This document shows positions 1,449 to 23,506 of a DNA stretch of 25,969 nucleotides, piece after piece. The notes under the pieces were generated by a model. The model did no database searches. It saw only the letters and a list, made by a program, of their open reading frames with translations, and had not been told where the DNA came from. The position numbers and the translations under genes were made by a program. Every line of letters starts with the position of its first letter. Position 1 is the first letter of the stretch. Origin of the DNA: a virus (taxonomy: Duplodnaviria > Heunggongvirae > Uroviricota > Caudoviricetes); IMG/VR virus record IMGVR_UViG_2585427776_000011. One strand, given 5' to 3'.

Positions 1449-1925
1449 GGTGTCCTCATGAGTGAGGGAACCAAAAAGAAAACCCGCAGTTTTTACGCTG
1501 CGGGTTTGTTGTTCATGTCTGTGAGATAGGGTGCCTTATCGACCTTACCCTGGCAACCGATTGACGGGGGATTGCTCCCCCGTCGCGGTTTCCTTACTGC
1601 TTACACTGTAAGAACGCCGCAAACTCCGCTCCCCAGAAGCTCATCCGTATTTCACACAGCGAACCGTGCAGCATCCAGATTATGAGGATTACCGTCACGC
1701 AGAACGTGATGGCCGTAAGCGATTTTTGCGACATAGCGCTTGCTCCTTTGTTGGAGAGGCGCTAACCTATCACTTGCTTAAGGTAGATATGTTAGGGCCT
1801 CGGTTAAACAGAGATGTTTTCCGGGGCCTTTCCACATCCGGCCTTCGGGTATTCCCTCCGACCATCAGCCGAAAGGCACCCGCGCGTAATCTATCGCTTT
1901 TTTGTTACTCCGGCAATTCTGCCTG

Positions 1926-2186
1926 TTAATTCTGAGATAAAGGCAAACTCATCTGATTGTTTCCCCTGTGTGAAGCTGGCAACTCATGCCACGGGATACC
2001 TTCTGAAGAGTGAACGCCGGGGGCGTGTTTCGATGTGAATTTATGGAAAGCTTCCAGTGTTGAGAAACTTATGCCGCATTCCAGGTTGTTACACTGGTAA
2101 TATTTTTTCCGTACGGTGTTTGAATCATTTTCCGAACGACTGGTGCGGATACGGGCAGATGCGCCACAAAGCGGACAACGGAACAT
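1926..2186 (-). CDS. ogr: Ogr/Delta-family zinc-finger late transcription activator
   Basis: N-terminus MFRCPLCG...YYQCNNLEC matches the C-x2-C...C-x4-C zinc finger of P2 Ogr; strong RBS GGGAGG upstream of ATG at 2186; C-terminal tail differs from P2 Ogr as I remember it. Confidence 0.8.
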   Translation of the reverse strand: MFRCPLCGASARIRTSRSENDSNTVRKKYYQCNNLECGISFSTLEAFHKFTSKHAPGVHSSEGIPWHELPASHRGNNQMSLPLSQN

Positions 2187-2228
2187 AGCGACCTCCCTTA
2201 ACGTGGTGCTGCCGCTATTCTAAGTTGC

Positions 2229-3338
2229 TCACTCTGTTTCTGCTATCCATTCCGGGATTTTTGCTTCAAGCTCAAGCTGCGTGGTAAAGCCGCTGTTATC
2301 AATGGTGTGCTCGGCTTTTGCAATAATCCAGTCCTGATTGTCGATGTCACTTTTGAAGCCTGTCACCGTGCCATGCATTTCGGGGTAGAGTTCTGCGCGT
2401 CCACGAGCCAGTGTGATGGAGAATGATGCGGCTCCGCGTTGTAGTTGCTGCCACTTTGCCGCCGCTGCGCGTCTTGCTGCCTGCTCGTTCTGATAAGTCT
2501 TGCGTAACACAAACACATTGCCTTCCGCGCCTTCCATATAATCACCTTCACGGCTGCTGCTTTTCTCCTTTTTGGGTTTTGGCGGTTTACGGCGTTTCAC
2601 GCTGACTTTTTTCTTTTTCCCGTAATTAAGATCAAGCCAGTAGGCGCGTACCCCCGTATACGCCTCGCGGTCAGCAATACGGAACTGATGGCGATCGCCG
2701 CTGCTGCGTGTAATGGCGAACGAGGGCAACGGCTGGCCCTGTGCGTTCACGCCACCACCTGGCATGATGAATAACAGATTGCCGCTTTTTACCGTGGTGA
2801 TTGCGCCCAGCATTTCCGCCATGCGCGTAAGAAAGGACATGTCGCTTTCTTCGGTCTGGTCGGCGTGGTCGATTTCGATATCCATCAGCATTTCGCTGAT
2901 TTGCGGTTTCAGACCGTACCGATGAGCGATGGCGGATACCACACGCTCAACGGTCACATCATGCCAGGACACCTCACGTTTAACGTTAAATTCATCCCGA
3001 AAATCTGCGCTTCTGGCTGAAACAGTCAGCCTGTCCGGCGGTCCTTCGTGAGCGATTTCATCAACAATGTAAGTGCCTTTTTCTGTCAGCGGTTCCCCTT
3101 TCCAGCCAATGAGAACCGTCAGACGCGCGCCCCGTGGCGGTAGCTGCAACTGGCCATCGGCATCATCCAGCGTGATGGTGAGCTGGTCCGCCTCAAATCC
3201 CCGGTTGTCGGTCAGCGACAGGCTCATCAGGCGCTCTGCCACGCCGGACAGCGTTTTACCCTCCGCGAGAATATCAAAATCCGGCATTTTCACGGGGTCT
3301 GTGCCCTGACTGAGCAATTGCATGGTGGTGTCGGTCAT
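2229..3338 (-). CDS. D: P2 gpD-like tail protein (late control gene D)
   Basis: Translation from internal start MTDTTMQLLSQGTDPVKMPDFDILAEGK... is gpD-like; start chosen at ATG 3338 with RBS GGGAGGGAACAG, not the longer 413-aa ORF from 3470. Confidence 0.9.
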   Translation of the reverse strand: MTDTTMQLLSQGTDPVKMPDFDILAEGKTLSGVAERLMSLSLTDNRGFEADQLTITLDDADGQLQLPPRGARLTVLIGWKGEPLTEKGTYIVDEIAHEGPPDRLTVSARSADFRDEFNVKREVSWHDVTVERVVSAIAHRYGLKPQISEMLMDIEIDHADQTEESDMSFLTRMAEMLGAITTVKSGNLLFIMPGGGVNAQGQPLPSFAITRSSGDRHQFRIADREAYTGVRAYWLDLNYGKKKKVSVKRRKPPKPKKEKSSSREGDYMEGAEGNVFVLRKTYQNEQAARRAAAAKWQQLQRGAASFSITLARGRAELYPEMHGTVTGFKSDIDNQDWIIAKAEHTIDNSGFTTQLELEAKIPEWIAETE

Positions 3339-3495
3339 CTGTTCCCTCCCTGTGCGGCATGGTCGCATGTGCGTGCGGAGTGGGTTACTGCTTTTTGTTG
3401 TCGCCGTGGCGGGAGAATAGCGCAGGGGTGAGATTACGCGCGTGGTGGGTGATGATTGTTGCTGAATCATTTAACGGATACAAGGGGCTGAAGCT

Positions 3496-4680
3496 ATGAG
3501 TGAAACTCGTTTTCATGGTGCCCGTGTTACGGAAAGTACCGACCTGGTAACAGCGATTAATGATGTTGATTCCAGTGTTATCGGTATCGTGGCAACGGCG
3601 GATGATGCGGATGCGGAGCTGTTCCCGCTGAACAAGCCCACACTGCTGACCCGCGTCAATGACGTGCTGGGAAAATGCGGAACAACGGGGACGCTTTATC
3701 GTGCGCTTAAGGCCATCGCAGACCAGGTGAGCACAAAGGTGATCGTCGTTCGCGTGGCTGAACACAAAGAAGAAGACGGAAAAACGCAGGATCAACTGGT
3801 TATCGGTGGTTCTGAATCTGACGGCAGCTATACGGGGATGTATGCGCTGCTTGTTGCAGAGCAGGATGAAAGCATCGGATACCGTCCGCGTATTCTGGCC
3901 GCGCCGGAGCTGGACACGGAGGCGGTAACAAAATCCCTGTGCGTGATTGCAGGTAAACTGCGCGCGTTTGTGTATGCCTCATGTCACGGCTGTAACACGA
4001 TGGCTGAGGCGATTACCTACCGCCAGAAATTCAACGAACGTGAGGTGATGCTCTTATGGCCGGACTTCATCGCCTACAACCCGAAAAGTGGCAAAAACGA
4101 AACGTTCCCCGCGCCTGCCTATGCGTGCGGCCTTCGTGCGTACATTGACCATGAGCAGGGCTGGCACAAATCGCTGTCCAACGTTCCGGTTAAAAATGTG
4201 CTGGGGATGTCTAGGCATGTGTTCTGGTCGTTGCAGGCCGAAGACAGTGATGCCAACAGCCTCAACAACAAAGAAATCACGACCATTATTCGTCGCAACG
4301 GGTTCCGCTTCTGGGGCAACCGCACACCGGAAACGAACGCCTACATCTTTGAGGTGTATACCCGAACCGCACAGGTGCTGGCTGATTCAATTGCGGAAGC
4401 GCAGTTTGAAACCATCGACAGTCCACTGACGCCTGCGAACGTGAAAGATGTTATCAGTGCCATCAGGGCAAAACTGGATTCACTGGTTACTGCCGGGAAA
4501 CTGATTGGGGCGTCGTGCTGGTATGACGTGGTGGATAACGGCACCACGAATTTACGTCAGGGGCGCGTGCGTATTCGCTACAAATATACGCCTGTTCCCC
4601 CGCTGGAAGACATGGAGCTTTACCAGTCGTTTACTGATGAATTCTTTGGTCCCGCATTTGCGGTGCTGGGAGGTGCCTGA
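3496..4680 (+). CDS. FI: P2 gpFI-like contractile tail sheath protein
   Basis: 394-aa ORF, recognised as tail sheath (FI) family; stop overlaps FII start (ATGA). Confidence 0.93.
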   Translation: MSETRFHGARVTESTDLVTAINDVDSSVIGIVATADDADAELFPLNKPTLLTRVNDVLGKCGTTGTLYRALKAIADQVSTKVIVVRVAEHKEEDGKTQDQLVIGGSESDGSYTGMYALLVAEQDESIGYRPRILAAPELDTEAVTKSLCVIAGKLRAFVYASCHGCNTMAEAITYRQKFNEREVMLLWPDFIAYNPKSGKNETFPAPAYACGLRAYIDHEQGWHKSLSNVPVKNVLGMSRHVFWSLQAEDSDANSLNNKEITTIIRRNGFRFWGNRTPETNAYIFEVYTRTAQVLADSIAEAQFETIDSPLTPANVKDVISAIRAKLDSLVTAGKLIGASCWYDVVDNGTTNLRQGRVRIRYKYTPVPPLEDMELYQSFTDEFFGPAFAVLGGA

Positions 4681-5192
4681 TGGCTGTACCAAAACATCTT
4701 CGCTTTTTTACGCTGTTTGTGGATGGTGAAAACGAAGTGGGTAAGGTGACGTCCGTCACTCTGCCTAAGCTGACGCGCAAAACCGACAGCTACCGGGGTG
4801 GTGGCATGATGGGTGCGGTAAGTATTGATCTCGGTCTGGACGACTCCGCGCTTGATGCGAGCTTTGTCATGGGGGGCGCAGTTCGTGAGCTGTTCCTTAA
4901 GTATGGCGGCACGATTGACGGCACGCTGCTGCGTTTTGCGGGTGAATACTACACCGATGCAGAAAGCGACCTGTATGAAGTCGAAATGCGCGGACGTGTG
5001 ACGGAAATTGATATGGGGGAAGCCAAACAGGGCGAAGCCACATCACACACTTACGCCATTAAAAACACCTACTACAAGCTGAGTGTTAACGATCGCCCGT
5101 TGTGGGAGATTGACCTGCTGAACTTCATTTACCGGAAGGACGGCAAGGACATTGTGCCCGATCGCATCCGTTCCGCGCTCGGGCTTGGCTGA
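4680..5192 (+). CDS. FII: P2 gpFII-like tail tube protein
   Basis: 170-aa ORF immediately after sheath gene; tail tube family by sequence and synteny. Confidence 0.9.
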   Translation: MAVPKHLRFFTLFVDGENEVGKVTSVTLPKLTRKTDSYRGGGMMGAVSIDLGLDDSALDASFVMGGAVRELFLKYGGTIDGTLLRFAGEYYTDAESDLYEVEMRGRVTEIDMGEAKQGEATSHTYAIKNTYYKLSVNDRPLWEIDLLNFIYRKDGKDIVPDRIRSALGLG

Positions 5193-5247
5193 TAAGTAAT
5201 ATGCAGGCGGCGCAGTGCGTCGCCTCTGACTGAAAAGGAGACAACTG

Positions 5248-5622
5248 ATGAAAGACATCGATACTGAAACCCGGAATAACACCGTGGCGGATGATGTGAC
5301 GGCAGGTGAGGATATGGCTGTCGAACGTGGCGTAAAACTGACCCGACCAATTGAGCGTGGTGGCGAAAAAATCACGTATGTGGAGATCACCGGGGCTATT
5401 GAACAGGCTGGATCCCTGCGTGGTCTGTCGCTGTCTGATGTGCTGAATCTGAAAGCGGATACCATGTTCACGCTGTTGCCTCGCGTGACCTCGCCACGAC
5501 TGGATGAAGTGATGATTAAAAAAATGTCGTCACGCGATTTTATTCAGTTGTGCGCTGTGGCTGTAAATTTTATGAGCGAGCCAGACTCTGGCGCGAAGAG
5601 CGTGCAGGAGACGGCAGCGTAA
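5248..5622 (+). CDS. E: P2 gpE-like tail assembly chaperone
   Basis: 124-aa ORF between tube and tape-measure genes, the conserved position of gpE. Confidence 0.85.
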   Translation: MKDIDTETRNNTVADDVTAGEDMAVERGVKLTRPIERGGEKITYVEITGAIEQAGSLRGLSLSDVLNLKADTMFTLLPRVTSPRLDEVMIKKMSSRDFIQLCAVAVNFMSEPDSGAKSVQETAA

Positions 5623-5786
5623 TCACCCTGGTGTGCTTTGAGCACATCGAAGATCTGGTGGCAGATATCGCCGCCATTTTTAACTGGTCGCCCGCCGAAA
5701 TCTTCATGATGACGCCCGGCGAAGTGGTTAGCTGGCGTGAGCGGGCGGCACTTCGCAGCGGGAATGCAGACAATGAAGACTCTTGA
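5248..5786 (+). CDS. gpE+E' tail assembly chaperone extension made by programmed -1 frameshift
   Basis: The -1 frame is open from 5520 to the stop at 5784-5786 and overlaps the end of E; candidate slippery runs are A7 at 5518-5524 and AAATTTT at 5565-5571. Exact shift site not determined. Confidence 0.6.
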
Positions 5787-8580
5787 CATCCGGGTCGCTT
5801 TCAGCGCCGTTGACAGGCTGACCCGGCCTGCCGAAAACGCCCGCCGCCTGATGGGGCAGTTTGGTGACTCCATCCAGCGAACGCAGGGGGCGATCAAAAA
5901 TCTCGAGCGTCAGGCGCGTTCATTTGAGCGCGCCCGTGACGCTGTCGGTAAAGCGGATGCTGGCATATTGAAAGCACGACGCCAGCTTAACGCCCTTAAT
6001 CAGTTACAACGCACGGGTACAGTGCTCAGCGAAAAACAACAAAAGCTGATGCAGCAGTTAAGCACCCGGCTTGAACGCCTGAATGAATCGCGCACACGGG
6101 AAATTCAGAAAATGCGGGAGCTTGGCGGAGAGCTGAAACGCCACGGCATTTCCCTGACAGGCAGCGATAACACCATCCAGCAGGCCATCAGACGCACCGA
6201 ACAGTACAACAACCAGCTTGAACGCGAACGGCAGGCGCTTGCGCGTGTAACACGTGCGCGTGAGCGGTATTCGCGCGCGCAGGAAACCGCGGGAAAACTG
6301 AAAACAGGTGGTGCGCTGGCAATTGGTGCGGCAGCGGCTGGCAGCTATGCTGCCGGGCGTTTTTTGCAGCCTGCGATCGGGTTCGGGAAAGAGATGTCCC
6401 GCGTTCAGGCACTGACGCGAATCGACCAGAACAGCCCGCAGTTTAAGGCGCTGCGTGAACAGGCGTTAAAACTTGGCTCTGAAACGCAGTTCACTGCAGG
6501 CGATGCCGCCAGTGGGCAGGCATTTCTTGCAATGGCAGGCTTCACACCGCAGGCCATTCAGGCTGCGCTTCCCGGAGTGCTGAGCATGGCAACGGCTGGC
6601 GGTATGGATCTCGGCGAGACGGCAGATATTGGCTCAAATATCCTGACGCAGTTCGGCCTTTCTGCTGACCAGATGGACCGGGTCGGTGACACACTCACCG
6701 CAGCGTTTACCCGTACCAACACTGACCTTCGCGCACTGGGCGAAACCATGAAATATGCAGGTCCGGTGGCGGGTAAGCTGGGAATATCGCTGGAGCAGGC
6801 CGCAGCGATGGCTGGCGTGCTGGCGAATATGGGCATCAGAGGGAGTGATGCCGGGACGGCAATGCGTGCCAGCCTGGCTCGTCTGGCATCACCGCCAAAG
6901 GCGGCGGCAGAAGCTCTGAAAGAGCTGGGCGTGTCCGTCTCGGATGCCGGGGGTAAAATGCGCCCGATGGAGGATGTGCTGGCCGACCTTTATAAAGCCA
7001 CCCGCAAATACGGGGAAGTTGACCGGGTATCGTTCTTTAAGGACATTGCCGGAGAAGAGGCTTTCACATCGTTTATGGCGCTCGTTGATGCAGTGGGTGA
7101 CGGTTCCTTACCCAAACTGAGAAAAGAACTTGAAGGCGCGCGCGGTGAGGCTGAACGCACAGCAAAGGTTATGGCCAACAACCTTGACGGCGATCTGAAA
7201 TCACTCGGCAGTGCATGGGAAGGGTTGCGCATCCGCATTGCAGATCTGATTGACGGTCCGCTGCGTTCTGTCACGCAGTGGCTCACGCGGGTGGTATCAA
7301 GGGTGACGGCGCTGGCGCAGGCCCATCCGGCACTGACGCGCCAGCTACTGATAGCAGGCGGTGCGTTGCTGGCAATGACTGCAACGGTTGGCTCGTTGTC
7401 GCTGGCTATTGGTATGCTTGCTGGTCCGCTGGCAAAACTGCGTCTTGGTTTTTCTCTCCTGACCGGATCAATGAATGCTGTCAGGGTCCTGCCAGCACTA
7501 TGGGGAATGGTGACGGGTTCCGTTTCTTTACTGGGAGGCGCTATCGGGGCGCTGTTCAGTCCGGTTAGTCTTATCGTGGCTGCACTTGCCGGAGCTGCCG
7601 TTCTTATCTGGAAATACTGGGATCCCATCAGGGCATTTTTTGCCGGGGTGTTCAGCGGGATTATGGAAAGGCTGGCCCCGTTGCGCGAAACCTTTGAACG
7701 GTTTGGTCCTGTTTTTGACGCAATCGGAAGCGGGATCAGCCAGGTGTTTAACTGGTTTAAATCGCTGCTGTCACCGATGGAGTCCAGCAAGGAAACGCTG
7801 GAAAAATGTACCAGTGCTGGCGAGATATTCGGTAACGTTCTTGGCGGTGCGTTACAACTTGTTCTGACGCCTGCAAAAATGCTACTGGATACGCTGGCGT
7901 GGATACTTGAAAAACTTGGCGTCCTTCCGGATGAAGCGGAAAGGGCGCGCAAGAAAATCGAAGACGCACAGCGTGCGGCCATTCTTCAGGACAAGGTTGC
8001 CTTGCTTCAGGGGGACCTGGCGAAAATCAATCCGCCGAAGCCTGTGGAAAATGGCAATGGCACCGGAGGTGATAAACCCAAAGACAACAAACCGCTCACA
8101 GACAGCAATACCGGTACGCTACGCAGACTCAGCAAAATTGCTGATAACACAGGTAAGCTGGTTGATGAGACGAAAAAACGCATTGGCCCCGGCGATATTG
8201 TCTTTAAGAACCTGCCCCGCGCACTTGCTGTTCGTGGGGAGTGGCAGGAGCGGAAGATTGCGCAGGTCAGTAAGCCTGCTTCCGCAATCAACATCACACC
8301 CGTGGTCCCGACTCCTCTGCCTCCGGCGCTGGTCCCTGTTGTTGCGGCCAGCTCCCGCCCGGTGGCGGAGGCCATACGATCGCCAGTGGCATCAGTTCCT
8401 GCAACTTCCCGTAACCGGGAGCCTGTTGTCTCCGGATTTGGCGGTGAAATTCATGTTCATCTGCATAACGTTGTTACGCAGAATCCCCGCGAACTGGCGA
8501 AACTGGTCGGTGAAATGGTCAGGGCAGAATTGGAACGACGCGACCGTGCCGGACGTGGCAGTTTTTACGATAAAGATTGA
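5764..8580 (+). CDS. T: P2 gpT-like tail tape measure protein
   Basis: Long ORF (947 aa from 5737) with coiled-coil N-terminus and Gly/Ala-rich hydrophobic middle typical of tape measure; start placed at ATG 5764 (alternative 5773). Confidence 0.9.
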   Translation: MQTMKTLDIRVAFSAVDRLTRPAENARRLMGQFGDSIQRTQGAIKNLERQARSFERARDAVGKADAGILKARRQLNALNQLQRTGTVLSEKQQKLMQQLSTRLERLNESRTREIQKMRELGGELKRHGISLTGSDNTIQQAIRRTEQYNNQLERERQALARVTRARERYSRAQETAGKLKTGGALAIGAAAAGSYAAGRFLQPAIGFGKEMSRVQALTRIDQNSPQFKALREQALKLGSETQFTAGDAASGQAFLAMAGFTPQAIQAALPGVLSMATAGGMDLGETADIGSNILTQFGLSADQMDRVGDTLTAAFTRTNTDLRALGETMKYAGPVAGKLGISLEQAAAMAGVLANMGIRGSDAGTAMRASLARLASPPKAAAEALKELGVSVSDAGGKMRPMEDVLADLYKATRKYGEVDRVSFFKDIAGEEAFTSFMALVDAVGDGSLPKLRKELEGARGEAERTAKVMANNLDGDLKSLGSAWEGLRIRIADLIDGPLRSVTQWLTRVVSRVTALAQAHPALTRQLLIAGGALLAMTATVGSLSLAIGMLAGPLAKLRLGFSLLTGSMNAVRVLPALWGMVTGSVSLLGGAIGALFSPVSLIVAALAGAAVLIWKYWDPIRAFFAGVFSGIMERLAPLRETFERFGPVFDAIGSGISQVFNWFKSLLSPMESSKETLEKCTSAGEIFGNVLGGALQLVLTPAKMLLDTLAWILEKLGVLPDEAERARKKIEDAQRAAILQDKVALLQGDLAKINPPKPVENGNGTGGDKPKDNKPLTDSNTGTLRRLSKIADNTGKLVDETKKRIGPGDIVFKNLPRALAVRGEWQERKIAQVSKPASAINITPVVPTPLPPALVPVVAASSRPVAEAIRSPVASVPATSRNREPVVSGFGGEIHVHLHNVVTQNPRELAKLVGEMVRAELERRDRAGRGSFYDKD

Positions 8581-8586
8581 GGAGTC

Positions 8587-9081
8587 ATGGCCATGATGAT
8601 GATCTACGGCATGTTTGTTTTTGAGCTGCGCACATTGCCGCATCAGCAGTTACAGCAAAACAAAAGCTGGCGGCATGTGAAAAATGAACGCGTTAATCGT
8701 TCAGCAAGCTGGCAGTATATCGGCGCAGGTGATGATCGCATCGTGCTTTCCGGCGTGCTTTATCCTGAAATTACAGGTGGCGAAGTGTCGCTTTCGTTGC
8801 TGACCACGCAGGCATATACAGGACGCCCCTGGCCTCTGATTGATGGTGTCGGGCAGATTTACGGCATGTATGTACTGACTGAAACGAATACGACCCGTTC
8901 CGAGTTTGATCGCTACGGTAAGGCGAAAAAGATAGAATTTTCACTGACTCTTGGACGCTGTGATGAGGATTTGCGGGAGCGCCTGCAATCCTCATCGTTC
9001 AGTGATATGCTGTCCGGCTTCAAAGATAAGGTCACATCATCCCTTAACAGCGCGGCCAGCTCCGTTAAAGGGCTGTTTTGA
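8587..9081 (+). CDS. U: P2 gpU-like tail protein
   Basis: 164-aa ORF directly after T, gpU-like; start may be the second or third ATG (8593/8596) for better RBS spacing. Confidence 0.85.
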   Translation: MAMMMIYGMFVFELRTLPHQQLQQNKSWRHVKNERVNRSASWQYIGAGDDRIVLSGVLYPEITGGEVSLSLLTTQAYTGRPWPLIDGVGQIYGMYVLTETNTTRSEFDRYGKAKKIEFSLTLGRCDEDLRERLQSSSFSDMLSGFKDKVTSSLNSAASSVKGLF

Positions 9082-9088
9082 TTAACGC

Positions 9089-9120
9089 AAAACCGCTAAT
9101 GGTCAGATTAGCGGTTTTTA
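9089..9120. terminator. bidirectional intrinsic terminator between U and invertase
   Basis: Perfect inverted repeat AAAACCGCTAAT-ggtcag-ATTAGCGGTTTT with T/A runs on both sides; overlaps the 3' end of the invertase ORF. Confidence 0.6.
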
Positions 9121-9707
9121 TTTTCCTGAGTCTGCCTGGTTGTTTCTTCAGCCTGTATATCGCCTGCAGGGTGATAACGATAAATCGTCGATATGCCGAT
9201 GTCGTAAATGATCGCCAGTTGTTTCCTGTCATGACCGTTTTTAATCAGCCTCGCTATTTGCTCGTGTTGTTCTTTTGTCAACTTCGGGCGACGTCCGCCA
9301 ATGCGTCCTTGTGCGCGTGCTGCTGCCAGCCCGGCCAGTGTACGCTCTACAATTAATTCACGTTCCATTTCGGCTAAAGCCCCCATGACGTGAAAAAAGA
9401 AACGCCCCATGGGTGTTGATGTGTCAATGCTGTCCGTCAGACTACGGAAATTAACACCTTTTTCCCGCAATTCCTCAATAAGCGTGATCAGGTGTTTCAT
9501 ACTTCTGCCCAGTCTGTCCAGCTTCCAGACAACCAGCGTATCTCCTTCTGATAGCGTTCTGAGCAGTTTTTTCAATCCCGGTCTGGCTGATTTCGTTCCG
9601 CTGATTTTATCTTCAAAAATCAGTTCACATCCTGCGCAGTTCAGTGCATTGCGTTGTAAATCCGTGTTCTGGTCATTTGTTGACACACGAATATAGCCAA
9701 TTTGCAT
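9108..9707 (-). CDS. Gin/Pin/Hin-family serine DNA invertase
   Basis: Translation from MQIGYIRVSTNDQ... (resolvase catalytic serine motif) with C-terminal HTH ...LAIIYDIGISTIYRY; start at ATG 9707 with RBS AGAGGA, not the 264-aa ORF start. Confidence 0.9.
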   Translation of the reverse strand: MQIGYIRVSTNDQNTDLQRNALNCAGCELIFEDKISGTKSARPGLKKLLRTLSEGDTLVVWKLDRLGRSMKHLITLIEELREKGVNFRSLTDSIDTSTPMGRFFFHVMGALAEMERELIVERTLAGLAAARAQGRIGGRRPKLTKEQHEQIARLIKNGHDRKQLAIIYDIGISTIYRYHPAGDIQAEETTRQTQENKNR

Positions 9708-9721
9708 AAAAAACATCCTCT

Positions 9722-10207
9722 TTGTTTCGTGAAAAATACAGAGTTGGTATAGGTAGGGATAAAAACGAAAACGTTGGTTTGGGGGAAGGCTCTGCACTGC
9801 CCGTTGGTGTGCCCGTTCCGTGGTCCTCAGCAACACCACCAACGGGCTGGCTGAAATGTAACGGTGCAGCATTTTCTTCTGAAATGTATCCCAGACTGGC
9901 AAGGGCTTATCCCACCAATAAATTACCGGATTTACGCGGTGAATTTATCCGTGGCTGGGATGATGGGCGCGGGATTGATGCGGGACGTACCCTGCTTTCA
10001 GGGCAGGATGGTACAAGTTTTTCTCATTACGGAGGTAATTTCGACATTGGGTCTGGTCATTCAATCAATAACTATGACCAAATTGTTTCTAACCAACCAG
10101 GCTTTTCCCGTTTTTCATTTGCAGGGCCTTCACGAGGTGATGGGGTTAATTATGTAACCATTCGTCCTCGTAATATTGCGTTTAATTACATCGTAAGGGC
10201 AGCATGA
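9722..10207 (+). CDS. tail-fibre C-terminal cassette 1 (tail-collar-like domain), no canonical start
   Basis: ORF opens at TTG; contains GWLKCNGAAFSSEMYP...LPDLRGEFIRGWDDGRG, the pattern of phage tail-collar domains; ends NYIVRAA. Confidence 0.5.
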   Translation: MFREKYRVGIGRDKNENVGLGEGSALPVGVPVPWSSATPPTGWLKCNGAAFSSEMYPRLARAYPTNKLPDLRGEFIRGWDDGRGIDAGRTLLSGQDGTSFSHYGGNFDIGSGHSINNYDQIVSNQPGFSRFSFAGPSRGDGVNYVTIRPRNIAFNYIVRAA

Positions 10208-10217
10208 AAACGTTGGT

Positions 10218-10685
10218 TTGGGGGAAGGCTCTGCGTTGCCCGTTGGCGTGCCCGTTCCATGGCCCTCAGCCACGCTGCCAACGGGGTGGCTGAAATGTAA
10301 CGGCGCAGCATTTTCTTCTGAAATGTACCCCAATCTGGCAAAGGCCTACCCCACCAATAAATTACCGGATTTACGGGGCGAATTTATTCGCGGCTGGGAT
10401 GACGGACGGGGCGTTGATAATGGGCGCAACCTACTGTCTGCACAGTCTGACGCTATTCAGAATATAGTTGGCACTTTTGGGCGTACTCAGCTTTTTAAAG
10501 ATGCGCTTAATTCAGGACCATTTAGTCAAACTGACTCTATATTATCAGTAGGCTTACAACCAACTGAGATCATTGAAGGATATGGTGCTTCTGTATGGAC
10601 ATTCGACGCCTCTCGCTCAGTTCGCACAGCATCTGAAACACGCCCCCATAACATTGCGTTTAATTACATCGTAAGGGCAGCATGA
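10218..10685 (+). CDS. tail-fibre C-terminal cassette 2, no ATG start
   Basis: Same conserved 5' and 3' ends as cassette 1 with a different central segment; frame opens just after the previous stop. Confidence 0.5.
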   Translation: MGEGSALPVGVPVPWPSATLPTGWLKCNGAAFSSEMYPNLAKAYPTNKLPDLRGEFIRGWDDGRGVDNGRNLLSAQSDAIQNIVGTFGRTQLFKDALNSGPFSQTDSILSVGLQPTEIIEGYGASVWTFDASRSVRTASETRPHNIAFNYIVRAA

Positions 10686-10695
10686 AAACGTTGGT

Positions 10696-11202
10696 TTGGG
10701 GGAAGGCTCTGCACTGCCCGTTGGTGTACCCGTTCCGTGGCCCTTAGAAACACTGCCAACGGGATGGCTGAAATGTAACGGTGCAGCATTTTCTTCTGAA
10801 ATGTATCCCAGACTGGCAAAGGCTTATCCCACCAATAAATTACCGGATTTACGCGGTGAATTTATCCGTGGTTGGGATGACGGACGTGGTGTGGATGCGG
10901 GGAGAACAATATTATCCGCTCAAGGTGATGCCATACGTAATATCTATGGTGAGTTCAAGACTGTAAACACCGAAAATTATTCAATATGGGAATCAGTAGG
11001 CTCATTTAAGGGGGCAGTGGTGCCTTTGAGTCCCTCAACGAACAATAGTTATTTCTCCTTCACCAGAAGTATGGTGACAGAAAGAACAGACGGCACTGTT
11101 TACCCAAAAGTGATAGGCCTTGATGCTTCAAGAATTGTTCCAACTGCAAACGAAAACCGTCCTCGTAACATTGCGTTTAATTACATCGTAAGGGCAGTAT
11201 GA
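10696..11202 (+). CDS. tail-fibre C-terminal cassette 3, no ATG start
   Basis: Same architecture as cassettes 1 and 2 with a third variable centre. Confidence 0.5.
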   Translation: MGEGSALPVGVPVPWPLETLPTGWLKCNGAAFSSEMYPRLAKAYPTNKLPDLRGEFIRGWDDGRGVDAGRTILSAQGDAIRNIYGEFKTVNTENYSIWESVGSFKGAVVPLSPSTNNSYFSFTRSMVTERTDGTVYPKVIGLDASRIVPTANENRPRNIAFNYIVRAV

Positions 11203-11312
11203 AAACGTTGGTTTGGGGGAAGGCTCTGCGTTGCCCGTTGGTGTACCTGTTCCGTGGCCCTCAGCCACACCGCCAGCAGGGTGGCTGAAATGTAACGGTG
11301 CAGCATTTTCTT

Positions 11313-11531
11313 CTAAAATGTACCCAAAACTGGCAAAGGCCTAGCGGAAAACTCGCTACCGGGGAGTGGTGACAGGATGTGCTCAATATTCACACGTGCA
11401 CCATAAACGGACGGGTTATAACTGGTGGCGGCAGCTTTCAGCATGTCGCCGTTGATTTCGCGCCCGTCTGCCGTTACACCGGAGACAGCCACGCGAAACT
11501 TTTTGCGGGATGTCTTTTTTTCATTAGCCAT
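11313..11531 (-). pseudogene. truncated remnant of P2 gpO-like capsid scaffold gene (N-terminal ~60 codons only)
   Basis: MANEKKTSRKKFRVAVSGVTADGREINGDML...VYGARVNIEHI resembles the gpO N-terminus as I remember it; homology stops at about 11346 where the cassette array abuts; RBS AGAGGGG before ATG 11531; divergent from P as in P2. Confidence 0.6.
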
Positions 11532-11685
11532 AGTTTTTGCCCCTCTGACTGGTTCTTCAGTCATGATGGCAAAGCGTAACAGGCTGATACAAAGGGCTTT
11601 TGTTGTAAGAAAACGGCCAGAACAGGGGGTTAAGGAGAACAGTTTCGCGCGCGGGTAATCTTCCTGTAATTACTCAGGGGGAGCA

Positions 11686-13437
11686 ATGATTCAGGACGCT
11701 TTTGTGCGCCAGCGTGCGCGGCAACTTTACTGGCAGGGTTATCCGCCCGCAGAAATATCACGTCTGATGGGAATAAACCCGAACACGATTTATGCGTGGA
11801 AAAAACGCGACCAGTGGGATGAAACGCCACCCGTGCAGCGTGTCACGCAGTCCATCGATGCGCGCCTCATCCAGCTCACTGAAAAACAGAATAAAACAGG
11901 TGGTGACTTCAAGGAAATAGACCTGCTGACCCGGCAGCTTAAAAAACTGCATGATGGCCAGCCGGATGCGACGGCCACAGGAAAGAAAGGCCGGGCGAAA
12001 AAACTCAAAAATCATTTCACGCCGGAACAGATTGCCGCACTGCGGGAAAAAATCATCAGCAGGCTGGAGTGGCATCAGCGGGGCTGGTTTGACTCCCTGA
12101 CCCTTTGCAGGGAAGCCGGGATACGTAACAGGATGATCCTGAAATCCCGACAGATTGGGGCGACCTGGTATTTTGCACAGGAAGCACTGCTGATGGCGCT
12201 GCGTGACGATGTGGCGCAACCTTACCAGCGTAACCAGATTTTTTTGTCTGCGTCGCGTCGTCAGGCGTTCCAGTTTAAAAGCATTATTCAGAAGGCCGCG
12301 GCTGAAGTTGATGTGGAGCTGAAAGGGGGCGATAAAATCATCCTCTCAAACGGCGCAGAGCTGCATTTTCTCGGCACTTCTGCTGCGTCGGCACAGTCCT
12401 ATACGGGCAATTTTTATTTTGATGAATTTTTCTGGGTCAGTCGCTTTGCCGAACTGCGCAAGGTGGCTGGCGCTATGGCAACCCTCAGCGGACTGCGGCG
12501 CACCTACTTCTCCACGCCATCCACCGAAACGCACGAGGCATACGCCTACTGGAACGGCGACCGCTGGAACGAGAAAAAGGCCACGCATAAACGCCAGCGT
12601 TTTTCTGTGGACTGGAAAACGCTGCATAACGGGCTTATCTGCCCTGACCGGACGTGGCGGCAAATTGTCACGCTGGAAGATGTGGTTAAACACGGCTGGA
12701 AACACACCGATATCGACGAAATTCGTGATGAAAACACCGAAGACGAGTTCCTCAATCTCTATATGTGTGAGTTTGTCCGCGAAGGGGAATCGGCATTTAA
12801 CCTGAATATCCTGATTGGCTGCGGTGTTGACGGATACGACGACTGGAAAGACTGGAAACCTTTTGCTCCCCGCCCGATGGGGAATCGTCCGGTATGGATT
12901 GGGTATGACGCAAACGGCAGCAGTGGCAACGGGGACAGCGGCGCTGTGTCCGTGGTGGTTCCTCCGGCTGTTCCTGGTGGCCGTTTTCGAACGGTGGAGA
13001 CGCGACGCGTTCAGGGGCTGGAGTTTGAAGAACAGGCCAGAGTCATTGAAGAGTTCACGTGTCGCTACAACGTGGAACACATCGGCATTGATGTGACGGG
13101 CGGGAACGGGGAGGCTGTTTATCAGATAGTGAAGCGGTTTTTCCCTGCTGCTATTCCGTACACCTTCACGCTGTCATCCAAACGGTCGCTGGTACTGAAA
13201 ATGCTGCAAATAATGCGTGCCGGACGGTGGGAATACGATCGCGCCGAACGCGAGCTGGTCGCGGCCTTTAACGCCGTGCGTAAGGTGAAAACACCGGGTG
13301 GCTTTATCACTTACGAAACGGACCGCGCGAGGGGGATCAGCCACGGCGACCTTGCGTGGGCAACCATGCTTGCTGTCATTAACGAACCAATTGGCGGCGA
13401 AGGAGAAAACGAGCGTTTCACGGTTATGGAGTTCTGA
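11686..13437 (+). CDS. P: P2 gpP-like terminase large (ATPase) subunit
   Basis: 583-aa ORF recognised as P2-type terminase ATPase; stop overlaps Q start (ATGA). Confidence 0.93.
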   Translation: MIQDAFVRQRARQLYWQGYPPAEISRLMGINPNTIYAWKKRDQWDETPPVQRVTQSIDARLIQLTEKQNKTGGDFKEIDLLTRQLKKLHDGQPDATATGKKGRAKKLKNHFTPEQIAALREKIISRLEWHQRGWFDSLTLCREAGIRNRMILKSRQIGATWYFAQEALLMALRDDVAQPYQRNQIFLSASRRQAFQFKSIIQKAAAEVDVELKGGDKIILSNGAELHFLGTSAASAQSYTGNFYFDEFFWVSRFAELRKVAGAMATLSGLRRTYFSTPSTETHEAYAYWNGDRWNEKKATHKRQRFSVDWKTLHNGLICPDRTWRQIVTLEDVVKHGWKHTDIDEIRDENTEDEFLNLYMCEFVREGESAFNLNILIGCGVDGYDDWKDWKPFAPRPMGNRPVWIGYDANGSSGNGDSGAVSVVVPPAVPGGRFRTVETRRVQGLEFEEQARVIEEFTCRYNVEHIGIDVTGGNGEAVYQIVKRFFPAAIPYTFTLSSKRSLVLKMLQIMRAGRWEYDRAERELVAAFNAVRKVKTPGGFITYETDRARGISHGDLAWATMLAVINEPIGGEGENERFTVMEF

Positions 13438-14907: not shown

Positions 14908-14934
14908 TTGTGCAAATTTGTGCACTATTGTGCA
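14908..14934 (+). promoter_or_regulatory. three helically phased TTGTGCA direct repeats upstream of the accessory operon
   Basis: TTGTGCA at 14908, 14918 and 14928 (10-bp period), with a fourth copy near 14837 and a CGGATCC direct repeat at about 14847-14866. Confidence 0.5.
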
Positions 14935-15013
14935 TTTGTATAGTGAAAAAAATATAGCAGAAAGTATACTTAGCGCCTTGTGGGCTACGTTAACTTTGCA
15001 GGAACATTTGGAA

Positions 15014-16393
15014 ATGAAAAAAATCAATAAAGAAGATTCTAAAAGAACCTTTTTACGTGGATGGTTGCGATTTCTTCGTAGCGTTGAGAGAGCTAAGAAA
15101 AAAAAGCCTGCGCAAGAGAAAAATGGTAGTCTTCGTTTTTCCGATGAAACAACTCCTGTCCAAAACCAAGTCGCTACGTTCATTGAAAATATATCGATTA
15201 TAAAAGAGTATGACTCATCAATTCTTCGTCGTGACGCAGAGAAGATATTAATACCTAAATATTTTGACTTATATGACAATCCAGAGAAATCTCTGCTATT
15301 TATTAGTGCAGCCACAAAATTAATTGCAAGAGGTAAATGGAAATCATATATTTTTGATTACAAGAAAAACAAAAAACACTGTCTTGGTCTTGAGTGTCTA
15401 TTAGGTGTTGCTCTTACAGCAGCAAGGCAAAGTAATATAAATTTCAAAGATACGATGATTCAGATTAATGGTATCTACCCTAAAGATGAACAGTATCTTG
15501 AAATTATCAGGGATGTCGGGCTTGTAAAAGAGATTAGTAATGCTGCACCAGGTAAAGTTCTGGACTCTACTGAAGCATCGAAAAAAGCGAATCCGAAGAA
15601 ACGAATCTTCTCTGCTGATAGTATCGGAAAGGAGAATGCTTCTGCCTTTGCCCATGACAGAAAAAATGTCACTGCTGAAAAATTTACCGCATACATAAAC
15701 GAATGCTTAAATGATCATAATTTAAAACTTGTACATGAGGCAGAAAAGCATTTAACTTCCTGCATGGGGGAACTCCTTGATAATGCGGAGCGGCATTGTG
15801 GGTTAGAGCAACGCCCACGCTGGTATTTGAGAGGTTTTGTTAATAATAACGTACGAAACCCCATATGTGAGTTGGCTGTTTTCAATTTTGGGAAAACTAT
15901 CAGCGAAACTTTTGATAATTTACCTGAGGATCATTTTTCATTAAGTCAACAAGTTAATCCATACATAAATAAGCATATTAAGAAAAAGGGTATGTTTAAG
16001 GAAGGATTAACAACAGTAGCGGCCTTGCAAGGGCGGGTGAGTTGTAAAAACGAGAAAGAAACTGACAGTTCTGGCACCGGAACAATTGAATTATTGAAGT
16101 TATTTCAAGATATGCATGATAATCTTAAAAAAATGGGAAGAGATATTAAAGGTGGGATAAAAATGACTTTAATATCTGGTAGTACTCATATTAACTTTGA
16201 TGGATCATATAAATTAAAGCAAAGGTTGGTTAATGACGAGGAAAGTGACATTTTTACTTACCCTTTTAATGATGTAGGGCTTGAATCTGAACCGGATCGC
16301 AACTATCTTAAGCGTATGAAGGATGCTCGATTTCCTGGAGTTATGATCAATATTCGTTTTCCTCTACCAGAAAACGCCACCCAGCGAACTTGA
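15014..16393 (+). CDS. hypothetical protein with GHKL-type ATPase / anti-sigma-factor serine-kinase-like motif (accessory operon gene 1)
   Basis: ATG 15014 with AGGA RBS; 459 aa, AT-rich codon usage; motif GELLDNAERHCG resembles the N-box (E..NA..H.G) of SpoIIAB/RsbW-type kinases and SSGTGTIELL a G2-like box. Function is inferred, not verified. Confidence 0.75.
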   Translation: MKKINKEDSKRTFLRGWLRFLRSVERAKKKKPAQEKNGSLRFSDETTPVQNQVATFIENISIIKEYDSSILRRDAEKILIPKYFDLYDNPEKSLLFISAATKLIARGKWKSYIFDYKKNKKHCLGLECLLGVALTAARQSNINFKDTMIQINGIYPKDEQYLEIIRDVGLVKEISNAAPGKVLDSTEASKKANPKKRIFSADSIGKENASAFAHDRKNVTAEKFTAYINECLNDHNLKLVHEAEKHLTSCMGELLDNAERHCGLEQRPRWYLRGFVNNNVRNPICELAVFNFGKTISETFDNLPEDHFSLSQQVNPYINKHIKKKGMFKEGLTTVAALQGRVSCKNEKETDSSGTGTIELLKLFQDMHDNLKKMGRDIKGGIKMTLISGSTHINFDGSYKLKQRLVNDEESDIFTYPFNDVGLESEPDRNYLKRMKDARFPGVMINIRFPLPENATQRT

Positions 16394-16403
16394 GGACAGG
16401 TAC

Positions 16404-16748
16404 ATGAAAATGGCTGACATCACCATAGATTTCAATAAGTTAGTAAAAGATAGTAACAAGAAACTTTTTGCTGGACGTTCTAATGGGCGCCAGGCCTATG
16501 ATTACTTTAATATAGGGAAATTTTGCACAACCAGTAATGATAGATTATATCTATTGATCCCCAAGGGAATTGTTGTATCAAGCTCATACTTTCTAGGTAT
16601 GCTTGAAACGGTTTTGCCGAAATTTTCTTCGCCTAGCGAATTTTATAGTCGCACTGTACTTGATGGTCGTGAATATAAAGAAGGTATGCTTTCTGAATTA
16701 GATAGAGCTGTAAGGAGAGGCTTACATAAAAATGTTCCCTTCTTTTAA
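16404..16748 (+). CDS. hypothetical small protein, STAS-like / DUF4325-like (accessory operon gene 2)
   Basis: 114 aa, RBS GAGGA; segment IVVSSSYFLGMLE resembles the serine-containing core of STAS-like domains recalled from memory; sits next to the kinase-like gene. Confidence 0.7.
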   Translation: MKMADITIDFNKLVKDSNKKLFAGRSNGRQAYDYFNIGKFCTTSNDRLYLLIPKGIVVSSSYFLGMLETVLPKFSSPSEFYSRTVLDGREYKEGMLSELDRAVRRGLHKNVPFF

Positions 16749-17541
16749 AAATATTTTTCAAATCAAAATGACAGCGCTGTCTGTCATTTTTTTTATATTC
16801 CCCGCAGCTTGCTCTGTGACAGATTTTTCCAATAAAGAAAACATTGAATGTAATGAGTCACTTTATCCAAACACGCCTTTTTATATTCCCGATTCAGGAC
16901 TTAGTGGTATATCATCACCGTTTTTGTTATCCGGAAACCCGAATGATGGCTTGATGTTTTGTGAAAAGGCAAACGACACCTTTCATAAGTTATCTCTGGC
17001 AAGGGATAACAAAAAAGATTTATTTGCTAATTATTTCAAAGATGTTCCAAATTCCTATGATATATATAATATTGTAAAGGTTCCGGAAAATGGTCCAGAG
17101 TGGATTTCTATTGGCATCTCTTTATTTGCTTTAGTTTCATCCTTTGTTATTCCTTGTGTTCAACATAGAAAAGAACGTAAAGAAGCTATTAATGAAGGGT
17201 ATTGGGTAAGAGAAGTAATTATGCCTAAAATTAATGGGTTGGCATTCGATGTTGTGCAAAGTTTTAAAAACTCCATGGCATTATCAGAAGAGGAGTTTCT
17301 TAGTGTATTCAGTAATACTCTTTTACCAAAACTAGGAGAGTTACGGGATTCATTATATTTGTTTAATAGTTTTCCAGAATTAAATGCAGATATTGAAAAT
17401 CTAGAAAGTATTTGTGACTCCTTGGAGGAAGAAGTTTCCAATCATATAGACTCGCCTAATGAAATAAGAATTTCTGATATATCAATGTTTCATTCCAAAT
17501 TAATACAGAAATTAATTTTACTTCATAAGAAGATAGGTTGA
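16732..17541 (+). CDS. hypothetical membrane protein (accessory operon gene 3)
   Basis: 269 aa; N-terminal hydrophobic signal-like segment MTALSVIFFIFPAAC (lipobox-like Cys) and an internal hydrophobic helix WISIGISLFALVSSFVIPCV; overlaps the end of gene 2. Confidence 0.7.
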   Translation: MFPSFKNIFQIKMTALSVIFFIFPAACSVTDFSNKENIECNESLYPNTPFYIPDSGLSGISSPFLLSGNPNDGLMFCEKANDTFHKLSLARDNKKDLFANYFKDVPNSYDIYNIVKVPENGPEWISIGISLFALVSSFVIPCVQHRKERKEAINEGYWVREVIMPKINGLAFDVVQSFKNSMALSEEEFLSVFSNTLLPKLGELRDSLYLFNSFPELNADIENLESICDSLEEEVSNHIDSPNEIRISDISMFHSKLIQKLILLHKKIG

Positions 17542-22279: not shown

Positions 22280-22518
22280 GCGATATTCCCCAGCTTATAC
22301 GGTTCAATATGTTCCCCGCATTCTGCGGCACAGATTAGCTCGGAAAGTTCGTTAAGTGCATCCAGATCATCAGCGTAAAAAGCCACGTCATACAGACTTC
22401 GGATTGCTCTGGTCAATGAGTCACGGGCCGCACGTTCAGCATGAGCGCCTGATGCACTTAAGCGAAAATAAAAACGCTCAAGTGCTTTGTTAATGAGAGT
22501 TTTATATTCTTTGCCCAT
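22276..22518 (-). CDS. hypothetical phage protein
   Basis: 80-aa ORF from ATG 22518 (ORF track starts one codon earlier at GTG); RBS AAGGA. Confidence 0.55.
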   Translation of the reverse strand: MGKEYKTLINKALERFYFRLSASGAHAERAARDSLTRAIRSLYDVAFYADDLDALNELSELICAAECGEHIEPYKLGNIA

Positions 22519-22529
22519 CACAACGTCCT

Positions 22530-22817
22530 TTAATCTGCTTTCTGTATTTCAGCTTCTGAATCCATACAAATAATTTCGATATAGGGTTCATCGCCATTAG
22601 CCTGGCGTGCCTTTTCAGCTTCGCTAATGATTTCTCGTACGGTCTGGTACGGAAGTTCCACAAGCAGTCGCGTGCCGTTCAGATAAACGTAAGTGGCTTC
22701 GTCGGCTCCGTTTTTACCCGCCGGAGTCACTCCGTCAATAGCGGATGCACGTAATAACAGTTCACCGCGAAAATCAATAAAACGGATAAATACACCTTGT
22801 GCATGCTCTTTGGTCAT
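22530..22817 (-). CDS. hypothetical phage protein
   Basis: Start chosen at internal ATG 22817 (MTKEHAQGVF...) with RBS AGGTG; 95 aa. Confidence 0.55.
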   Translation of the reverse strand: MTKEHAQGVFIRFIDFRGELLLRASAIDGVTPAGKNGADEATYVYLNGTRLLVELPYQTVREIISEAEKARQANGDEPYIEIICMDSEAEIQKAD

Positions 22818-22827
22818 AACGCACCTG

Positions 22828-23178: not shown

Positions 23179-23314
23179 ATTAAAACTCTGTACCTTCGGT
23201 AAGGTGTACTCGTGTCACCTTGTATTGATTTGTGGTATTTTTTTGTGTGTCTAGGACTTGGACTGGCCGGTTCAGGTCCTGGCTTATGTTTAATTAAATT
23301 GTTAAGGGGTTTTC

Positions 23315-23506
23315 ATGTCAGAAGATAAAAAAGTTGTTAATTTGTTGAGTGAACTTAGTGCTGCTCTGGATAACATTAACCCTCCCAGGGTAAAAACGAC
23401 GGGTGATAAAGACGCATTAAACGCAGAGATTCATATATTACTGGCGTTAGTAACTGACAAAATTCAGCGTAAATACCCACCTGTCACACAACTGGTTGAT
23501 TTTTAA
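23315..23506 (+). CDS. hypothetical small protein (AT-rich accessory gene)
   Basis: 63-aa ORF with RBS AAGGGG; the only plus-strand gene in the early region; convergent with the next gene. Confidence 0.5.
   Translation: MSEDKKVVNLLSELSAALDNINPPRVKTTGDKDALNAEIHILLALVTDKIQRKYPPVTQLVDF

Follow-up and report, generated by a model that had tools for sequence, protein, structure and literature searches.

A serine invertase beside a tandem store of tail-fibre C-terminal cassettes in a P88-like prophage: probable remnant of a multiple-inversion system cut by a deletion

The stretch of DNA analysed here (the window; 25,969 nucleotides, IMG/VR record IMGVR_UViG_2585427776_000011) contains a serine invertase gene followed by a row of tail-fibre C-terminal segments that all lie on one strand, with no fibre gene for them to join, and it raises the question of what such a locus is and how it came to lack its partner. 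A preliminary description had offered two readings, an orphaned multi-cassette host-range reservoir or a product of aberrant recombination, of which the former is supported by our results. We consider it very likely that what the window holds is the half nearest the invertase of a multiple-inversion host-range system of Gin/Pin type, beheaded by an illegitimate deletion. The anatomy of the array, the identity of its sites, the end points of the deletion and the permutation of cassettes among genomes, on which this reading is built, were all observed directly.

The window is E. coli chromosome (its serS is 99.4% identical to that of E. coli) with a P88-like, P2-family prophage integrated beside serS. 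The gene order D (minus), FI-FII-E-T-U (plus), invertase (minus), cassettes (plus), O (minus), P-Q (plus), A and int agrees with that of P88 and of the EC10 prophage, bar a deleted block from H to O, and is the order found in P88-like phages (Xuanwuvirus, Peduoviridae). DNA of the U-invertase region is 86-88% identical to P88-group phages, and the succession of U by the invertase is common to phage P88 and to E. coli EC10, E2348/69 and MEI1O2-23. Three cargo ORFs at 14918-17541 gave no match in PADLOC, Pfam or NCBIfam and matched, weakly, one PHROG family whose function is unknown; the 459-aa ORF of this group had no PDB sequence match. Two genes frame the locus:

8587..9081, plus strand: tail gene U (Pfam Phage_P2_GpU, E 2.5e-38), last of the FI-FII-E-T-U tail block before the invertase
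11686..13437, plus strand: terminase large subunit P (Terminase_6N, Terminase_6C and Terminase_5 domains), to the right of the deletion

Between them, the invertase gene and its presumed control element are placed as follows:

9108..9707, minus strand: intact Gin/Pin-type serine DNA invertase of 199 aa (Pfam Resolvase, E 1.4e-51; HTH_7, E 3.8e-13)
9618..9689, minus strand: presumed Fis-bound recombinational enhancer, nt 19-90 of the invertase gene, by DNA homology to the P1 cin enhancer

The predicted protein has the architecture of a small serine recombinase, an N-terminal resolvase catalytic domain with a C-terminal helix-turn-helix, and across 191 aa it shares 73% identity with Mu Gin, the N-terminal IGYxRVSTNDQ motif included, which confirms the earlier assignment of a Gin/Pin-type invertase upstream of the cassettes and opposite to them. 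At 600 nt, the gene has the length annotated in EC10 and E2348/69. In Mu and P1 an enhancer lies within the 5' end of the invertase gene, and the window has a putative counterpart: 57 of 72 nt (79%) match the annotated P1 cin enhancer, a likeness for which coding constraint could account and which equals the level elsewhere (Mu gin, 55/72; e14 pinE, 57/72). Fis-like 15-mers begin at nt 22 and nt 71 of the gene. Judged from this homology, the invertase may depend on Fis and an enhancer.

Downstream of the invertase gene, the 19-mer GAAAACGTTGGTTTGGGGG occurs in four exact copies (at 9767, 10206, 10684 and 11201), all on the plus strand and each opening a cassette; about 0.01 matches are expected by chance, even with three mismatches tolerated. 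Each copy belongs to a longer site:

9762..9787, plus strand: crossover site 1, the 26-mer AAAACGAAAACGTTGGTTTGGGGGAA, with its TT centre at 9774-9775, 55-60 bp from the invertase start codon
10201..10226, plus strand: crossover site 2, AGCATGAAAACGTTGGTTTGGGGGAA, overlapping the stop codon of cassette 1
10679..10704, plus strand: crossover site 3, from the 19-mer search, site comparison and weight matrix
11196..11221, plus strand: crossover site 4, from the 19-mer search, site comparison and weight matrix

The core, ...GAAAACG-TT-GGTTTGGGGGAA, places AAAC and GGTTT half-site cores about a 2-bp centre within 26 bp; a degenerate form of the site reads [AT][AT]AC[CG]TTGGTTTGG. The core of the motif had been said to resemble Hin/Gin/Cin-family crossover sites, and alignment with gix, cix and pix, whose sequences were taken straight from the Mu, P1 and K-12 records, supports a crossover site of Hin/Gin/Cin/Pin type. 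The window site is identical to e14 pix (arms AAACGTTGGTTTGGGAGAAGG and AAACCTTGGTTTGGGAGAAGG) at 20 of 21 bases, it shares the TT centre of cix, for which the P1 record places the crossover between the two central T's of ...AAACC-TT-GGTTT..., and its right half agrees by eye with Mu gix (TTATCCAAAACCTCGGTTTACAGGAA) at 9 of 12 positions. On a weight matrix built from the window, H, pix, cix and gix sites, real sites score 29-33 bits; site 1 reaches 33.4 bits, against 11.0 for the best non-site in the window, and its placement relative to the invertase gene is that of gixR beside gin and of pix beside pinE. A search for an inverted partner, proposed in the preliminary description, found none in the 26-kb window either with the 19-mer at up to three mismatches or with the weight matrix: the best minus-strand score, 10.2 bits, lies under the shuffle maximum of 18.8. 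An inverted pair of sites in cis is absent from the window and present in the intact relatives EC10, E2348/69 and MEI1O2-23.

The sites delimit three complete tail-collar cassettes and a stub of a fourth, arranged head to tail on the plus strand:

9767..10207, plus strand: cassette 1 (collar domain, unique 158-nt middle, conserved C-terminus NIAFNYIVRAA)
10206..10685, plus strand: cassette 2 (collar domain; alignment)
10684..11202, plus strand: cassette 3 (collar domain; alignment)
11201..11343, plus strand: cassette 4, truncated (first 143 nt left, 89-92% identical to the starts of cassettes 1-3 and unrelated beyond 11343)

An array of three and a half cassettes had been reported; the array stands, and the count is to be lowered to three and 143 nt, or about 0.3, of a fourth. 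Start-to-start spacings are 439, 478 and 517 nt, and Pfam recognises a Collar domain in each cassette (E about 1e-14). The conserved 5' part, divergent middle and conserved 3' end noted at the outset can now be given values: among cassettes 1-3 the first 235 nt are 85-90% identical and the last 48 nt 88-92%, while the middles (158, 197 and 236 nt) are mutually 45-50% identical, exactly the range of shuffled controls. Tandem Repeats Finder was blank on the array because the units are too divergent in the middle; a repeat search and MAFFT revealed them. That a single gene was duplicated in tandem in the ordinary way, without a variable core and with no bearing on site-specific recombination, is suggested by the head-to-tail order of the cassettes and by ends 85-92% identical, yet we regard this as next to impossible: the middles differ in length and are no more alike than shuffled sequence, an exact pix-type site stands at every boundary, and the same cassettes recur in other orders, orientations and H fusions in other genomes. 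The alignment of the middles and the permutations among genomes together refute it.

As had been described, each cassette starts directly past the preceding stop without start signals of its own; the stop is a TGA, and the frame differs each time. The sole 'start codon' there is a TTG within the crossover site; neither a Shine-Dalgarno sequence nor a promoter was found at the cassette starts, a sigma-70 scan of 9000-11700 giving 2 promoter-like matches against 3.9 expected. The array has at least three sites (four, for 3.3 cassettes), each at the 5' end of a C-terminal cassette lacking start signals. The cassette ORFs have predicted products of 144-170 aa, and RefSeq annotates homologous ORFs as 'phage tail protein' CDSs, as would suit a working multi-gene locus in which each short ORF is expressed alone, from the TTG in its site, as a small tail protein. 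We hold this to be very unlikely, since the starts fall inside a recombination site and have neither ribosome-binding nor promoter-like sequence, the same modules form the ends of long fibre proteins (H in MEI1O2-23, Stf of HK97), and the prophage is without a baseplate to which any fibre could attach.

The preliminary description was also right that the body gene is missing, no tail-fibre body gene H being present anywhere in the 26-kb window. What the cassettes would have joined is seen in the relatives: in EC10, E2348/69 and MEI1O2-23 the same invertase and plus-strand cassettes lie opposite a minus-strand tail-fibre gene H, with TTCTTGATTACCTTGGTTTGGGGGAA on the opposite strand at the border of its constant and variable parts. 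The constant part of H closes with the inverted site TTCTTGATTACC-TT-GGTTTGGGGGAA, so that a constant 5' part ending in a joinable site is present in the relatives and missing from the window. An H-type constant end reads ...GVLDYLGLGEGS. It had been held that classical invertible segments do not store cassettes in tandem and in the same orientation; the intact relatives contradict this, their silent cassettes normally being stored in tandem on one strand and inverted relative to H.

Individual cassettes of the window recur in these genomes in other settings. The middle of cassette 1 recurs unchanged (100% identity) in the first silent cassette of E2348/69 and, at 99.4% identity, in an oppositely oriented cassette of MEI1O2-23, where five cassettes are present; that of cassette 2 is 99% identical to the C-terminus fused to H in MEI1O2-23 (L010 8699-10303), and that of cassette 3 is 95.8% identical to the invertase-adjacent cassette of the same genome. 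Database proteins have the cassette 3 type fused behind an H-type constant end (...SVLDYLGLGEGS...) and behind two further fibre N-termini. These differences in order, orientation and H fusion lend indirect support, from comparison of genomes, to segment inversion.

The window follows the EC10 prophage through to the cassettes and picks up again at L001 24926, within gene O, with about 10.7 kb missing. The break and the gene beyond it are:

11342..11345, no strand: deletion junction, ...GGCAAAGGCCTA / GCGGAAAACTCGC..., the parental sequences having just 'TA' in common
11344..11531, minus strand: remnant of capsid-scaffold gene O, first ~63 codons, running into antisense cassette 4 and stopping at 11313

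Compared with the full-length EC10 protein, the remnant covers only positions 2-55 of the 268 of the Pfam Phage_GPO profile. The junction, at 11343/11344, shows 2 bp of microhomology (parental sequences GGCC-TA-CCCC and CCCA-TA-GCGG).

An intact invertase adjoining four perfect sites invites the view that the enzyme itself made the break, whether by a deletion or inversion that involved a cassette site and a quasi (secondary) site within gene O, or by resolvase-like recombination of direct repeats, and recombination at secondary sites is known for Cin. The position of the junction speaks strongly against it: it falls outside any site, 135 nt downstream from the site 4 centre, and the two parental sequences, sharing TA alone, score -14.6 and -32.8 bits on the matrix on which real sites reach 29-33. 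Nor is a cassette-to-cassette deletion product evident, the three complete cassettes all being different. We therefore give aberrant invertase action very little credence, and the earlier proposal of aberrant recombination gives way to loss of the body gene by a deletion with ends outside the crossover sites.

Cassette arrays break short-read assemblies, and the Logan contig of SRR1186685 stops 31 nt past the junction ORF, within the array; the missing body gene might on these grounds be ascribed to a mis-join across repeated cassettes. This is harder still to credit, since the junction links a cassette to unique gene O sequence with two shared bases only, and the 72-aa ORF that spans it was found on five contigs of differing sources. 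Among them are the run SRR1186685 and a 290-kb NCBI contig (GCA_000714105.1) that carries the same junction at 99.95% identity, with 10 mismatches in 20.2 kb, and represents a different genome. The same deletion was found in none of the complete E. coli genomes of the collection, where no place covered at least 80% of 8600-11900.

An illegitimate deletion from a multiple-inversion system would accommodate these observations as follows. In the intact phage, H lies on the opposite strand with a constant part ending in a crossover site, and promoterless C-terminal cassettes, each behind a site, are stored in tandem beside the invertase, inverted relative to H. The invertase, presumed to need Fis and an enhancer located in the 5' part of its own gene, would recombine the H site with any cassette site of opposite orientation, exchanging DNA at the central TT; each exchange would couple a different receptor-binding tip to H and reshuffle the order and orientation of the cassettes. 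In the window, a deletion of some 10-11 kb, from nt 143 of the fourth stored cassette to about codon 63 of gene O, has taken out H and the expressed cassette, together with the genes for baseplate, lysis and head, and left over an intact invertase gene with four directly repeated sites and no inverted partner. We infer that the locus is inactive: the cassette store is no longer expressible and, judged over 26 kb of the genome, very probably no longer switchable, although an inverted partner site could lie elsewhere in the genome, in e14 or another P2-like prophage.

Several known systems share parts of this design. In the P segment of e14 (Pin; E. coli K-12), pix differs at one of 21 bases, a divergently oriented invertase gene likewise has the site about 60 bp upstream, and the junction peptide ...NLGLGEG... 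is shared; unlike the window, e14 is a lambdoid element that has two sites and a pair of cassettes, neither of collar type and each accompanied by an assembly gene of its own. The Mu G (Gin) and P1 C (Cin) segments have the 26-bp dyad with AAAC..GGTTT cores and crossover at the central dinucleotide, but they are two-site, two-state switches with S/U gene pairs, whereas in the window the sites are many and each collar cassette is a single ORF with no assembly gene. The Min system of plasmid p15B, reported by Sandmeier, Iida and Arber in the early 1990s, is said to have six mix sites and a serine invertase that works on more than two crossover sites and permutes several C-terminal cassettes of the tail fibre; its reported carrier is a P1-like plasmid, not a P2-like prophage, and we liken the system to the window by its description.

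The multiple-inversion locus of E2348/69 (EPEC) has the same prophage type, gene order and identical site sequences; the two invertase genes agree at every one of their first 130 nt, and the stretch from U through cassette 2 shows 98% identity as a whole. Both store silent cassettes in tandem, in E2348/69 on the strand opposite to H; E2348/69 retains H, the inverted site and a tail-fibre assembly gene and stores two cassettes, whereas the window stores at least four and has lost H and the inverted site. For a P2-like prophage of that strain, three inverted repeats, four coexisting PCR-confirmed variants and three alternative C-termini have been described (Goldberg et al. 2014; PMC4272514), the inversions measuring 'around 2,200' and 'around 1,800' bp. 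The locus that we analysed carries exactly two plus sites and one minus site, spaced 2.0 and 1.6 kb, and fits the published one, being matched by site number and geometry rather than by the paper's coordinates. The temperate Enterobacter phage FR-phi has a gin-dependent tail-fibre 'shufflon' with three C-terminal isoforms and a demonstrated effect on receptor use (PMC13418256); phage and cassettes are different, and we liken it to the window by description. A shufflon in the strict sense (R64-type, with the Rci tyrosine recombinase acting on sfx repeats at pilV) was rejected, the recombinase of the window being a serine resolvase/invertase, and the term fits the array only as an analogy.

Tail-fibre switches that work by a serine invertase and have more than two cassettes are thus already on record, including in the near-identical prophage of E2348/69, and the array of the window is a decayed copy of a described, known system, not a new arrangement. 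There is a slight chance that array and invertase may still act in trans, as cassette donor and source of recombinase for other Pin/Gin-type loci of the same cell, and that the direct repeats may rarely recombine and resize the store. Candidate partner loci would be e14, with pix one base off, another P2-like prophage or an infecting phage. If so, a functional phage could draw on a dead prophage for new receptor-binding tips, through site-specific and not homologous recombination. For annotation, 'phage tail protein' CDSs in such arrays are to be read as silent C-terminal cassettes, not genes, and tandem same-strand cassettes beside an invertase as the normal geometry of storage. For the decay of prophages, the window illustrates that a recent deletion can leave a perfectly preserved recombination module stranded.

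The window begins in serS (99.4% identity to E. coli), and its gene order is shared with phage P88 (Xuanwuvirus, Peduoviridae) and with many prophages of E. coli, where an invertase gene on the opposite strand comes after an FI-U block. Beyond serS lies a P2-family prophage, made up of the hok and ogr region, D (minus strand), FI, FII, E, T and U (plus strand), the invertase gene (minus strand), tail-fiber cassettes (plus strand), a stump of the capsid-scaffold gene O (minus strand), terminase P and portal Q (plus strand), three unknown ORFs, replication gene A (minus strand) and the integrase gene. The features of principal concern are:

9108-9707, minus strand: serine recombinase (invertase) ORF of 199 aa with Resolvase and HTH_7 domains
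9767, 10206, 10684 and 11201, plus strand: exact 19-mer GAAAACGTTGGTTTGGGGG, opening cassettes 1 to 4
14918-17541, plus strand: three ORFs of 491 (459 from the first ATG), 114 and 269 aa, between Q and A

The 19-mer occurs on the plus strand only and spaces the cassettes 439, 478 and 517 nt apart, start to start; even with three mismatches permitted, about 0.01 chance matches would be expected. Three complete cassettes follow in succession, each opening in a new frame directly after the preceding TGA; only the first 143 nt of the fourth remain. Cassettes 1-3 share 85-90% identity over their initial 235 nt and 88-92% over their final 48 nt, while identity between their middles (158, 197 and 236 nt) is 45-50%, no higher than in shuffled sequence. 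The features reported for the invertase and array in the preliminary description are real. Every unit carries a Pfam phage tail Collar domain and resembles, in sequence, the receptor-binding regions of T4 gp37 and gp12; upstream of the cassettes, neither a promoter-like site nor a Shine-Dalgarno sequence was found for any of them.

The invertase is 73% identical to Mu Gin, and nt 19-90 of its gene match the annotated cin enhancer at 57 of 72 positions (gin and pinE being alike in this), which is consistent with, and not proof of, a Fis-dependent enhancer in its 5' part. Between the convergent U and invertase genes, a hairpin at 9089-9118 with a 12-bp stem and T runs on either side is a likely bidirectional terminator. 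Several likenesses identify the cassette-boundary sites as invertase crossover sites. The arms of the e14 P segment, AAACCTTGGTTTGGGAGAAGG and AAACGTTGGTTTGGGAGAAGG, are one base off the H-type and cassette-type sites; cixL and cixR in the P1 record have AAACC-TT-GGTTT, with the Cin crossover annotated between its two middle T's; and Mu gix is TTATCCAAAACCTCGGTTTACAGGAA on both sides. Some 60 bp separate site 1 from the start of the divergent invertase gene, an arrangement like that of gixR beside gin and of pix beside pinE. No inverted partner for the four sites was found within the window, all four being direct repeats.

This same-strand arrangement had been regarded as a departure from classical invertible segments, a premise that fails on comparison with intact relatives. 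The EC10 prophage carries three plus-strand cassettes after the invertase and, further on, on the minus strand, the tail-fiber body gene H, then I, J, W, V, lysis genes and head genes down to O. The sequence of EC10 H, ...GVLDYLGLGEGSALPVGVPVPW..., shows that the constant part of the gene closes with TTCTTGATTACC-TT-GGTTTGGGGGAA; this is the cassette site in inverted orientation, differing in its left half. E. coli E2348/69 has two sites on the plus strand and one on the minus strand, and E. coli MEI1O2-23 two and three, respectively. Stored cassettes therefore normally stand in tandem on one strand, all of them inverted relative to the body gene. At L001 14780-15421 and 15163-15177 in EC10, H itself is annotated as a pseudogene without a C-terminus; its cassette diverges downstream of the collar domain, and then come a degenerate site, AAAACGTTGGTTTAT, and part of a tail-fiber assembly gene. 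This may be the scar of an earlier rearrangement within the invertible region.

Switching of this kind has been described. For the P2-like prophage of E2348/69, Goldberg et al. (2014) reported an invertible locus of complex structure, with three inverted repeats, four coexisting PCR-validated variants and three alternative C-termini (PMC4272514). The site geometry that we find at this locus matches the published one exactly (sites 2.0 and 1.6 kb apart, or ~2.2 and ~1.8 kb counting the ~230-bp repeats). In its invertase and first cassette the window is practically identical to this strain, in which switching was demonstrated. A gin-dependent fiber "shufflon" with three isoforms and receptor consequences is also known from an Enterobacter phage (PMC13418256). 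The system itself is already known, and the window array is a decayed copy of it.

The body gene is missing from the window. The window aligns to the EC10 prophage from 1529 to 10900 and resumes from 11342 in gene O, within the coding sequence for the first ~63 residues, and ~10.7 kb of the EC10 map is missing. The parental sequences (slash at the join) are ...GGCAAAGGCCTA/CCCCACC... in the cassette and ...ATCGCCCATA/GCGGAAAAC... in gene O, sharing only the bases TA there. Neither is like a crossover site, the scores being -14.6 and -32.8 bits against 29-33 bits for real sites. Loss of the body gene is an ordinary illegitimate deletion, which took H and the expressed cassette(s) together with any assembly gene, most of the head genes and those for baseplate and lysis. 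A junction-spanning ORF of 72 aa occurs on five contigs from different sources, so that the deletion is real and common to more than one isolate; among them are one from run SRR1186685 and a contig of 290 kb in GCA_000714105.1, which has 10 mismatches to the window over 20.2 kb (99.95% identity). The collection's 5,426 complete E. coli genomes all lack the deletion. That sites, cassettes and invertase gene are all perfectly conserved points to a recent event.

The same cassettes occupy other positions elsewhere, evidence that they do get exchanged. The 534-aa H protein of MEI1O2-23 has window cassette 2 as its expressed C-terminus (99% identity in the variable middle). A counterpart of cassette 1 (99.4%) stands behind this one, likewise on the minus strand, and the first plus-strand cassette beside the invertase is cassette 3 (95.8%). 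Among database proteins, the cassette-3 type is fused to an H-type end (...SVLDYLGLGEGS...) and also to two unrelated short fiber N-termini, MAKNDFKAF... and MHRIDTKTAQ... (proteins P0063 and P0039). Both of the latter joins run through ...ENLGLGEGS..., the peptide encoded by the crossover site; the site therefore doubles as a module boundary common to different phage types. The non-invertible side tail fiber of HK97 ends in the whole module, from LGLGEGS to NIAFNYIVRA(A/V); the conserved 3' end of the cassettes is therefore a protein feature. Such cassettes are widespread: a 235-nt cassette start has matches in 321 genomes of the collection, at a median of 3 and a maximum of 12 places per genome, and about half of these places are on plasmids.

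The three ORFs at 14918-17541 occupy the old/tin position of P2, a known hotspot for anti-phage cargo. They had no match in Pfam, PADLOC or NCBIfam, nor the 459-aa ORF in PDB sequences; the sole match was weak, to phrog_3364, a family of unknown function. Inspected by eye, the large ORF has an ELLDNAERH motif reminiscent of the GHKL ATPase N-box and the last looks membrane-anchored. The same genes are present in GCA_000714105.1, and we regard them as a candidate uncharacterized defense or cargo operon. In a related serS-adjacent prophage of E. coli W13-16 (L003), a TIR-domain gene absent from the window lies between ogr and D (22430-23338); that prophage is decayed too, in another manner: its head-completion gene is truncated and its terminase gene carries IS elements. 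As its route of decay differs from that of the window, serS-linked P88-like prophages seem to undergo repeated, independent decay.

In the intact system, the invertase would act at the central TT, recombining the site in H with whichever cassette site has the opposite orientation, thereby swapping the receptor-binding tip and permuting the cassette store. Wild-type invertases of the Hin/Gin family show a strong bias against recombination between direct repeats. The one reading that retains some novelty, in which the orphaned store and its invertase work in trans on other loci, is unlikely and has no support here. The store in the window is not expressible and, given this bias and four direct-repeat sites without an inverted partner, very probably not rearrangeable either.
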